Source: Eledone cirrhosa
Taxonomy: Eukaryota
Direction of reading: 5' to 3'
Length of the DNA stretch: 64,000 nt
Assembly: GCA_964016885.1 (NCBI GenBank)
Contig: OZ024760.1
Span: forward strand, 18,166,001-18,230,000
This document shows, in pieces, positions 7,433 through 50,429 of this stretch. How positions within the stretch are numbered: the stretch's first letter is position 1; every line of letters begins with the position of its first letter. The position numbers were made by a program, and so were the translations under genes. The notes under the pieces were generated by a model. The model saw only the letters and a list, made by a program, of their open reading frames with translations. It was not told the origin of the DNA and ran no database searches.

Positions 7433-8574
7433 ACCAAACCAGACCCCAATGAATTACTGGTACAGTTCATCCGACGAAATTCCAAACAGTTTCTCTCTGT
7501 CCCAGTTTAACTCACAAGACATGGGTCGACAGGGTTTTTTTTATATAGTAAATGACATATGGCCAAGATTCCACATGTGTTGGGGGGCGGGGATCAAGAC
7601 CCAGTGATTGGGAAGGGAACTCTTCCCCTTAACTATTCAACCACATTAAGTCCTTTCAAACAAGCAAAAATAAATAAAAATAAATAAATAAAAAACAGCA
7701 CAAAACAAAATAAAAAAAAGAAAGAAGTTTATAGGAAGTGAATTGTATCAATAATGTCAAATGAAAAATTATTGAAAAATAAATGAAAAGATGAATAAGC
7801 AGGTCACAGAGTGCATGAGATATTTGGGTCAGGTCAGGTCAGAGGTCAGAGGTCAAAGGTGGCAGGCCAGAGGTTTAGAGAAAAAGATTTCTTCCAAACA
7901 ATTTGGAAAATAGTTTAGTTTTTTTTTTGTTTTTTTTTTTGTTTTTTCTTTTCTTTTGAATTACGGTTCTTGCATTGGTAGAATGTCAGGGAATCAACAT
8001 GAGAATATGTGTGTGTGTTTATGTGTATGTGTATGTATATGTGTGTGTATGGATGTGTATGTGTGTGTGAGGATGTATGTGTATGTGTATGTATATGTAT
8101 GTATGTATGTATATGTATGTATGTATATGTATGTGTATGTGCGTGTGTATATATGTATGTGAAGATGTGTATGTATGTATATATATGTATGTGTATGTAT
8201 GTATATATGTGTATGTATGTATATATGTGTATGTATGTATATGTGTGTGTATGTATATGTTTGTAAATGTATGTATATGAATGTGTATATATGTGTGTGG
8301 GTTTATGTATGTGCATGTATGTATATGTGTGTGTGTATGTGTGTGGATATATGTGTGTGAGTGTATATGTGTGTATGTAGGAATATGTATTTGTATATAT
8401 AAATATGTAGATGTGTATGTATGTATATATATATGTATGTATATATCTTTGTGTGTATGTATGTTAATGTGTATGCATGTGCATTACATGTGTATATATT
8501 TGCAACTGCAAATGTATGTGTATATATATATATATATATACACATACATTTGCAGTTGCAAATATATACACATG

Positions 8575-48605: not shown

Positions 48606-48738
48606 TATGCCTCTATATAAATATACATGTTCACATACATATATATATATATTTATATACATACATACATATTCTCTTTTACTCTTTTACCTGTTCCAGC
48701 CATCCGGCTGAGGCCATGCTGGGGCACCGACCGTGTGG

Positions 48739-48838
48739 AAAAATATGGAACGCTTCACAAATTTGCGTGTCATCCTTGCTCAGGGGCCATGCTAATCTTA
48801 TCTGTATCGTTCCAATTTTAGTATATGTACTGTCGAAG

Positions 48839-48845
<7 letters not shown>
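48739..48845 (-). pseudogene. U6: U6 snRNA full-length copy, probably a pseudogene
   Basis: Reverse complement TTGCTTCGACAGTACATATACTAAAATTGGAACGATACAGATAAGATTAGCATGGCCCCTGAGCAAGGATGACACGCAAATTTGTGAAGCGTTCCATATTTTT matches U6. ACAGAGA box reads ACAGATA (position 48800), with other substitutions; the 5' flank is (TA)n with no visible PSE. Confidence 0.9.
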
Positions 48846-48902
<57 letters not shown>

Positions 48903-48910
<8 letters not shown>

Positions 48911-49058
48911 ATACTTTGGGAGGGTCATGTTGCCAATAAGAAACACACGCACCAGTTGCTTTCACTTCAATTTATTATATATTTATAAATTTATAAATTT
49001 ACAAATTTACAAACTTATAAATTTCTGGTTGGTTGGTTGGTTCCACAACCAGATAGTT

Positions 49059-49096
<38 letters not shown>

Positions 49097-49272
49097 AACT
49101 ATAAACAACTATAAACAACTATCTGGTTGTGGAACCAACCAACCAACCAGAAATTTATAAGTTTGTAAATTTGTAAATTTATAAATTTATAAATATATAA
49201 TAAATTGAAGTGAAAGCAACTGGTGCGTGTGTTTCTTATTGGCAACATGACCCTCCCAAAGTATAACAATAT
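48903..49272. repeat. Perfect fold-back palindrome, ~163-bp arms around a (TA)n/ATAAACAACT spacer
   Basis: 48903-49065 is the reverse complement of 49110-49272. Confidence 0.95.
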
Positions 49273-49334
49273 CGGTTTCAACACACGATTTCAGATAAAA
49301 AATCTTGCTAAACAAATTCAGAAACGAAATATAT

Positions 49335-49381
<47 letters not shown>

Positions 49382-49601
49382 AATATAAATTAGCGAGAAT
49401 CGTATTTCGGCTATTGGAAATTAGCGAAAAACAACTTCCGAGATGTGTGGCAAGCGCTCAATAAATTCTAACGAACTAGAGCTACAACATACGTTAAAAG
49501 GCCAAACGCACTGAGACGATGGTTAAACCATTATCCGCACAGCCATAGAAACGACCAAGTAATTCGGGTCAAACAGATAGAAAAATGTGATTGAAAAATA
49601 C

Positions 49602-49629
49602 ATATATATTGCTTTGGCAGTACATATAC
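49602..49629 (+). pseudogene. U6 snRNA 5' head fragment (5' stem-loop plus ATATAC)
   Basis: atatataTTGCTTTGGCAGTACATATAC matches the first ~27 nt of U6 and the copy at 48.8 kb; similarity stops abruptly after CATATAC. Confidence 0.75.
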
Positions 49630-49692
49630 AATCCGACAGCCGAAGGATATCGATGTAAAAGGAGATAGGAAAATCTGCTTCGTAAGAATCAA

Positions 49693-49788
49693 GATGTATC
49701 TGAGGACCTTGCGATTTTCGGAGTCAGGTTCGATCACCACATCGATCGTGCCTCGAGCTGGTCGGCAGAGAAACGATTGTAATATGTC
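49693..49788 (+). ncRNA. Putative type-I hammerhead ribozyme with long stem II
   Basis: Stem I GAUGUAU(49693-99)/AUAUGUC(49782-88); core CUGAGGA 49700-06; GAAA 49770-73; stem III AC-GAUU-GU; cleavage GUA 49779-81; AATAAA at 49790. Stem II is imperfect. Confidence 0.6.
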
Positions 49789-49835
49789 CAATAAATTCCA
49801 TTCGTCGCAACACTGATTCTCTTTTTTTCTGTGAT

Positions 49836-49892
<57 letters not shown>

Positions 49893-50429
49893 TTCGTTTA
49901 ACGTCCATTTTCCACGCTAGCATGGGTATCATCATCATCATCATCGTCATATATATATATGAGAGATATACATACACATATATATCAGTGTATATACATA
50001 CATACATACACACATACATACACATGTATATATATAAATATATCTGTTAGGTTAGAGCTGCTTCAAAAGTCTTCTTCACCATCCAATGGAACAATCCAGC
50101 AACAACAGGAAAATTTCTATAGATTTATTTTTTTGTTGTGGTGGCGATGGTGGTGATGGTGGTGGTGGTGGTGGTGGGGAGGGGTAAGGAACAAGTGGTG
50201 GAGGATCTCTCAAACAGCAACAACAACAACAACAACAACAGCAACAATGATAGTAATACATAAATAGATATATGTATAAAAATAATTCAAATAAAGTGAT
50301 GCAACTTGTTGGCTTTTATTTTTTTTTTTTTCAAGTAGGTGCATCTCTGCATCTCTGTATCCTAGCCTCCTGTACAATCTCCACGGATACACGTGTGCAT
50401 CTGCACTAAGTCATGCATATATGTACTAA

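Follow-up and report, generated by a model that had tools for sequence, protein, structure and literature searches.

A one-off U6 snRNA fragment on the truncated 3' end of a probable Penelope-like element, likely copied from a neighbouring U6 retrocopy

Penelope-like elements (PLEs) of the EN+ Penelope/Poseidon type, as described by Cervera and De la Pena (2014, PMC4209133), by Craig et al. (2021, PMC8557442) and in PMC11167929, have a single ORF with a reverse transcriptase (RT) and, at its C terminus, a GIY-YIG domain, and carry a hammerhead motif near the 3' end whose tiny helix III is closed by a palindromic loop. The same sources describe heavy 5' truncation, inverted 5' copies, an optional tail and AT or (TA)n targets. 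All of these have their likeness, with an ORF that is RT-like, in family A, the repeat family whose 3' end lies in the window analysed here (the whole 64,000-nt stretch of Eledone cirrhosa contig OZ024760.1). Family A differs from the elements described in these sources in having a 3' region of about 2 kb and a tail of about 74 nt rather than 30-40 nt, and in the form of its hammerhead.

U6 snRNA is also known from retroelement junctions. The U6/LINE and U6/SINE chimeras and 3'-truncated U6 pseudogenes described by Doucet et al. (2015, PMC4476161) likewise hold a single-copy U6 piece 5' of a 5'-truncated element and do not propagate, whereas the partner in our window is a PLE and not L1, L2, RTE or CR1, only U6 nt 5-25 are present, no target duplication was seen, and the template was likely nearby DNA. 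SINEU, the crocodilian U1/U2-headed SINEs (Kojima 2015, PMC4494074), resemble the window in carrying an snRNA head on a retroelement body that has no internal promoter, but as described they are multi-copy, have common junctions and have tails that are never headless, while our genome has a single head against hundreds of headless bodies; this is Kojima's own test, and by it the window chimera is independent. Non-LTR (animal) retrozymes (bioRxiv 10.64898/2026.07.22.740005) are, like the family-A units, short, non-coding and type-I-hammerhead-bearing, and derive from PLE pLTRs, but they are described as tandem arrays with at least two hammerheads, whereas the window copy is a monomer and family A is linked to an ORF. 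Templated inserts are known at end-joining junctions, and those of synthesis-dependent microhomology end joining (Yu and McVey 2010, PMC2943611) are short, templated nearby and joined at microhomology, as we propose for the window, although they were described at fly nuclease breaks and ours would lie at a retroelement junction. Our searches of the open-access literature turned up no U6/PLE chimera or U6-headed hammerhead element; the supplements of PMC4209133 and PMC8557442 may show similar mollusc hammerheads, and the main text of an octopus repeat paper (PMC13282606) mentions neither hammerheads nor snRNA. Set beside these systems, the window holds a one-off chimera on a known element class.

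The preliminary description had placed the locus in a unique island and taken it for a candidate U6-headed retrozyme/SINE, or else a new Pol III RNA, keeping a one-off chimera as its alternative. The U6-like head does end at 49629 and abut non-U6 DNA, and the stem I segments, CUGAGGA, GAAAC, GUA, AATAAA and the T7 run, with (ATC)n after it, were all observed as it had placed them. The island was instead found to consist of two high-copy repeats, with 1911 first-look candidates in the 3.0 Gb of genome searched for the family-A query (49630-49835) and 2694, at 95-98% identity, for the repeat B query (49385-49599). The features between 48,661 and 49,927 are as follows.

48661..48738, minus strand: a common retroelement's 3' tail, to which the neighbouring U6 retrocopy is joined
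48739..48841, minus strand: U6 retrocopy, nt 5-107, with 4 substitutions and the same nt-5 start after (AT)n as the head
48842..48906, unstranded: (TA)n tract that borders the neighbouring U6 retrocopy at its 5' end
48907..49328, unstranded: repeat C, a palindrome centred on a (TA)n tract
49380..49599, plus strand: TA-flanked fragment of repeat B
49600..49608, unstranded: short (AT)n linker leading from repeat B to the U6 fragment
49609..49629, plus strand: U6 snRNA fragment (the head), nt 5-25, with nt 1-4 missing
49630..49838, plus strand: 5'-truncated 3' end (pLTR) of family A, probably Penelope-like
49693..49788, plus strand: predicted type-I hammerhead within the family-A end
49838..49927, unstranded: (ATC)n tract with part of a further repeat; the Penelope end grades into these

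Rfam searches of the window and of 49000-50200 at E<=10 passed a single RNA, the neighbouring U6 (minus strand, 48739-48844), and the miRNA matches obtained are spurious because of the repeat C palindrome and simple repeats. The two arms of repeat C (48907-49065 and 49110-49268) are identical to each other at 159 of 159 positions and 87-91% identical to full-length repeat C copies; the palindrome also contains a local 11-nt unit, repeated, and a similar 36-nt TA-centred palindrome was observed at window 8521-8540. Elsewhere in the genome repeat B forms partial tandems with a 0.6-0.8 kb unit and (TA)n flanks (L060:6380-7207, L061, L064), and a pattern scan of repeat B found no CUGANGA-type hammerhead.

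Judged by its anatomy, family A probably belongs with the hammerhead-bearing PLE pLTRs, a pLTR, an inverted copy and a tail being the anatomy described for Penelope-like elements (PMC8557442; PMC11167929). The best 40 scored copies besides the window all start at or after 49630 and are 93-96% identical to the window body, and a 19-mer from the family-A hammerhead core has 912 exact genome matches (reversed control, 0). Many of the 29 family-A loci fetched extend upstream in common family sequence, the longest for at least 1.48 kb. At 8 positions the window copy alone departs from the letter most frequent in 28 close copies, and the family letters opposite them also dominate the contigs of four sequencing runs (organisms A-D), in which both repeats occur in pieces and no listed piece spans the head, making these contigs uninformative about it.

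One long copy (L058) has ORF fragments whose end lies about 1.7 kb upstream of the body, and the C-terminal fragment of this copy has 152 scored genome matches. Sixty loci hand-picked from the match list (59-91% identity) and L058 itself gave 61 GIY-YIG-type ORF-end loci, and at 41 of them the hammerhead motif was observed downstream, on the same strand and within 3.3 kb, as counted with a motif profile of 11 sequences, nine from the counted loci, and with three matches partial. This ORF linkage bears out the association of the motif with a Penelope-like pLTR that had been suggested for the locus. The distance from body to ORF end was 1.1-3.1 kb, mostly 1.3-2.1 kb. PF01541 (GIY-YIG) was the only relevant Pfam match in three of three C-terminal fragments (E 0.0006-0.01), at 16.6-20.5 bits and so under the 22.6 cut-off, and the shorter L058 fragments had no Pfam match. 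One 788-aa protein is matched, in order, by the N-terminal, the RT-like and the C-terminal fragments of family copies (E 5e-9 to 3e-28). Pfam matched no RT family in the ORF fragments, which come from broken copies, or in the 788-aa protein, so it is by their motifs that we take the fragments to be RT-like and the clade to be presumably of the EN+ Penelope/Poseidon type.

On contig C1 the first 30 matches to the core, less two same-locus repeats, gave an unselected set of 28 copies, and in 14 of these the 5' junction carries an inverted copy of the element. Two fixed 3' ends were observed among the 28, with 14 copies ending as the window copy does and 11 ending 74 nt further, and the 3' ends mostly run into (TA)n. 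At one locus (L127) the ~74-nt tail leads into the ORF start, with an inverted copy before it. Solo units of 170-245 nt make up most family-A copies. We also observed that the 5' ends of 25 of the 28 unselected copies (L256-L285) lie within 30 nt, equivalent to window 49654-49683, and 20 of these within 10 nt (~49664-49673), some 25 nt before the hammerhead; this clustering suggests a defined unit of 170 or 245 nt, the start of which could be a transcription start, a splice site or an RT stop.

The hammerhead predicted in the window has helix I at 49693-99/49782-88, CUGAGGA at 49700-06, GAAAC at 49770-74 and GUA at 49779-81, with a long, interrupted helix II (49708-49768), a helix III of 2 bp and a predicted cut after 49781. 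In an alignment of 36 natural copies chosen for spread, 88.2% of the cells in this structure are paired, compared with 24-41% in slid controls, and 11 of 26 pairs show two-sided (compensatory) change, a count reached by 0 of 500 shuffles. Examples are a helix I pair with A-U in 18 copies and G-C in 13, and helix II pairs with A-U 23 and G-C 9, G-C 26 and A-U 8, and U-A 15 and C-G 10. We treat this covariation as support and not as a probability because the aligned copies share ancestry and also served for drawing the structure. The outer part of helix I is weak, with 75% paired, and helix II is all that RNAalifold recovers from the alignment. G8, A13, A14, C15.2 and G16.2 are invariant in the 36 copies and N7 varies; the full canonical core was observed in 15 of the 36 relatives, and the core is intact in the window and in family A. 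Compensatory changes thus support a putative type-I hammerhead fold in family A, in an atypical form. About 62 nt, making up helix II, separate the two core halves, against a spacer of 7-17 nt in the published descriptor. Other departures from the published PLE hammerheads include 10.1-11.1, which is unpaired in 34 of 36 copies and paired without G-C in the other two, U4>C (16 of 36) and an altered A6 (10 of 36). The next pair inward from 10.1-11.1 is C-G in 33 of 36 copies, and 22 of 36 have a perfectly palindromic loop on helix III. At 10.1-11.1 in the window (49707-49769, the helix II base) C faces A, a mismatch, and a private change in the same helix has left G-G at 49711-49765 where the family has G-C.

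The Rfam hammerhead check proposed for the locus gave no match at the body, either at the gathering score or at E<=10, and a genome-wide RF00163 search matched another family instead of family A. The type-I assignment of the preliminary description is therefore favoured by covariation across relatives, and not by Rfam or by the C-A at the helix II base. Single-sequence folding of five sequences found the hammerhead region no stabler than shuffles (z 0.15 to -1.17), and in the minimum free energy fold of the window copy alone the hammerhead is not formed. The B-box-like word reported earlier (GGTTCGA, 49727) is present, but it forms one side of a conserved hairpin and survives in only 10 of 36 relatives; AATAAA (49790-95) and T7 (49822-28) are ordinary family-A sequence. 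Cutting by the parent element's hammerhead would fall after the base that matches 49781, and would likely occur in a dimer or with the aid of the protein that the element encodes. Minimal PLE hammerheads with a palindromic helix III loop are described as acting as dimers (PMC4209133), and the hammerhead of one PLE is reported to have cut in vitro only with the element's protein and to be dispensable for insertion (PMC11167929).

Compared with the genome's own U6 gene copy, the head (49609-49629) is nt 5-25, identical at 20 of 21 positions (C11>T), with U6 nt 1-4 replaced by (AT)n; the first ~27 nt of U6 had been claimed here, and of this the U6 derivation stands while the extent does not. Its likeness to U6 is above chance because the 21-mer, with up to two mismatches, has 42 genome matches compared with 1 for the reversed control. 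A 21-mer spanning the junction has a single genome match with 1 mismatch allowed (the reversed control also has 1), as does the pattern of U6 head, 0-30 bases and family-A body, and the head-body junction is single-copy in the genome. No U6 head was observed on other family-A copies, whether among the 29 fetched loci (0/29) or in the unselected set (0/28). With the junction unique and the bodies headless, the one-off chimera first offered as an alternative fits.

In all four intact U6 genes checked we found ATGCWAAT at -76 to -78 together with a TATA word at -30/-31. Both words were looked for upstream of the head (~-77 and ~-30) and both are absent; the repeat B fragment occupies the place that any U6 promoter would need. 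A T4 run lies at 49715, inside the family-A body. Capping needs the U6 5' stem-loop plus +1, and the head is still able to fold a hairpin (z -2.3 in folding against shuffles). U6 transcription is described as needing upstream elements (PMC4494074), and the upstream elements and intact +1 of a U6-type (type 3) Pol III gene are both missing at the head. The head-bearing product is likely dead DNA without a promoter of its own. Around the head there is no informative target duplication, merely a short AT-rich word, and beyond the Penelope end no further U6 sequence was found in the window, as read directly and with Rfam.

Our census of U6 copies covered 53 loci, namely all 42 head matches and 11 more of the 48 Rfam U6 hits, most of the remaining hits being in a tandem array. 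This array (G000:C19:31780605-31840331) holds ~32 U6 genes at ~1.8-2 kb spacing, and the two array genes read have variant 5' stem-loops and A24>T. Family A is joined to U6 at 1 of the 53 loci, in the window only. U6 is cut at nt 24-59 at 20 of the 53, and these include 3'-truncated copies with clear target duplications (L036, L042, L205) and copies in which U6 runs into (TA)n at nt 24 (L201, L202). Seven U6 pieces start at nt 5, and only the head and its neighbour follow pure (AT)n. The neighbouring retrocopy stands head-to-head with the head, 770 bp apart, with only (TA)n, the repeat C palindrome and the repeat B piece between them, and it carries G13>A, which is absent from the head. A 22-mer from its tail has 4621 exact copies in the genome, and U6 precedes 0 of the 30 sampled; the neighbour is an ordinary U6 retro-chimera of the kind described in PMC4476161.

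Several other U6 composites were observed in the census. Ten of the 53 loci have a near-full U6 joined, within ~10 nt of one point, to one ~70-nt hairpin tail (window 48661-48841 on the minus strand, L041, L190, L191, L197, L203, L218, L219, L221, L224), and many headless tail copies are truncated at that same point. A U6-headed SINE family of this type was considered and rejected, given 4621 tails with 0 of 30 after U6 and junctions that vary, and any one U6 change is common to only 2-3 of the ten loci; these look like independent chimeras, as with platypus U6-L2, and not like a family. At L188, L194, L199, L200, L212, L208 and L043, U6 leads, as judged by eye, into a common SINE-like repeat at its 5' start. 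L037 (G000:C4:253800686-253801151, minus strand) has U6 nt 6-107, next ~90 nt that find no match in the 40 scored copies, and beyond these the 3' end of a second family, which has a compact CUGAUGA hammerhead pattern and 2519 candidates. An inverted copy of this second family lies directly upstream of the U6, making L037 a second U6/PLE-like composite, and no second U6 was seen in the 3-kb locus.

We give somewhat better than even chances to the reading in which the locus is a cut-short family-A 3' end with a one-off U6 piece, likely copied from the neighbouring U6 at a TA repeat during end joining; the head itself we regard as probably, though by no means securely, a local copy of that neighbour. 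We infer the following order of events. A U6/retroelement-tail chimera would have inserted at a TA tract, after which a free end in the self-complementary (TA)n may have folded back and been extended 21 nt over the U6 5' end. The extended end would then have joined a 5'-truncated Penelope cDNA, perhaps via CTAA, which is common to U6 nt 25-28 and the element at the junction, with one T missing in the product, and repeats C and B would later have entered the TA tract and separated the two U6 ends. The head is likely a fold-back copy because it has, at 770 bp, a neighbour of the same (AT)n and nt-5 start, and nothing but (TA)n and two repeats separates the two; 42 heads spread evenly would give 0.00044 pairs within that distance, a figure that ignores insertion hot spots. 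A local origin is further backed by the repeat C arms, which form a perfect 159-nt TA-centred palindrome. Inverted flanks were observed at 6 of 286 TA tracts (one of the six a weak 12-nt match), compared with 1.4 in shuffled pairings, and at 0 of 125 CA/TG tracts. At the 5' junctions of two other family-A copies (L015, L017) flank DNA recurs in inverted form. Such flank-derived copies are not enriched at family-A 5' junctions, with 0 of 28 in the unselected set and 2 of 26 in an earlier one against 37 of 1800 random positions, and a separate enrichment test gave 1 of 28 against 59 of 1120. A late copy is excluded because G13>A, present in the neighbour, is missing from the head, and C11>T is the head's own; by the same pattern an early local copy and an independent copy of U6 RNA are inseparable by sequence alone, and the frequency of 3'-truncated U6 pieces (20/53) counts against the local-copy account.

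An independent copy could have arisen in other ways. The Penelope RT may have left its own RNA after ~210 nt, jumped to U6 nt 25 and copied to nt 5, which we hold to be unlikely, at about one chance in four. U6 retro-chimeras are frequent, with one retroelement tail at 10 of 53 U6 loci, and in L037 U6 lies inside the inverted end of another PLE-like family with no second U6 in 3 kb; the CTAA microhomology could also have served such a jump, and U6 chimeras with L1, L2, RTE and CR1 have been published (PMC4476161). However, the jump leaves the head-to-head U6 of the same start at 770 bp as a coincidence, and the template-switch U6 copies described in that paper are 5'-truncated or full-length and not cut at nt 25. 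The coincidence is equally required, as two independent same-start U6 insertions within 770 bp, if a 3'-truncated ("tailless") U6 retrocopy already lay in the TA tract and the Penelope end inserted later at its AT-rich end. The truncated copies of the census, with their target duplications or (TA)n at nt 24, show that such pieces occur, and the PLE endonuclease is described as preferring AT-rich DNA (PMC11167929), but no more U6 sequence follows the Penelope end, and we consider this order of insertion improbable. The U6-headed self-cleaving Pol III RNA, or U6-headed retrozyme/SINE family, has in its favour the hairpin of the head, the stem covariation of the family and the T7 run after the body. 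It is largely refuted by copy number, the composite being single, and it is further opposed by the missing U6 +1, ATGCWAAT and TATA, the T4 run at 49715, a B-box-like word kept in a minority of relatives, a T7 run and AATAAA that belong to the ordinary family sequence, and 8 private changes of which one breaks helix II in a copy whose predicted fold is not a hammerhead; we regard it as very improbable. RtcB-type ligation, which would join U6 to a hammerhead 5'-OH end, was rejected as the origin of the junction because the head has no U6 3' end and meets the body ~150 nt upstream of the cut.

The proposed new RNA class falls away, its junction being single and without U6 promoter words, and a covariation-supported hammerhead variant in the Penelope lineage remains, a modest result. 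Standard searches miss this long-helix form, of which one subfamily has 912 exact core copies, suggesting that some PLEs scored as hammerhead-less may have such forms. A broader claim, that PLE RTs jump onto U6 (the window and L037) and that the hammerhead of the lineage is a working variant, its helix II 60 nt long, its 10.1-11.1 position unpaired and its cores U4C/A6U, which Rfam and published descriptors miss, we consider doubtful. The locus records PLE 5' ends patched with nearby or cellular sequence, a still unexplained step of PLE insertion.

Other hammerhead-bearing repeats were observed in the same genome. A different TA-flanked family (L065-L084) carries a compact hammerhead passing Rfam Hammerhead_1, with 19 over the cut-off among the 72 matches listed in the RF00163 search. 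Tandem repeats, each with a minimal CUGAUGA pattern, were found at L118 (three copies, 469-nt spacing) and at L060:345-1391, and both are candidate non-LTR retrozymes.
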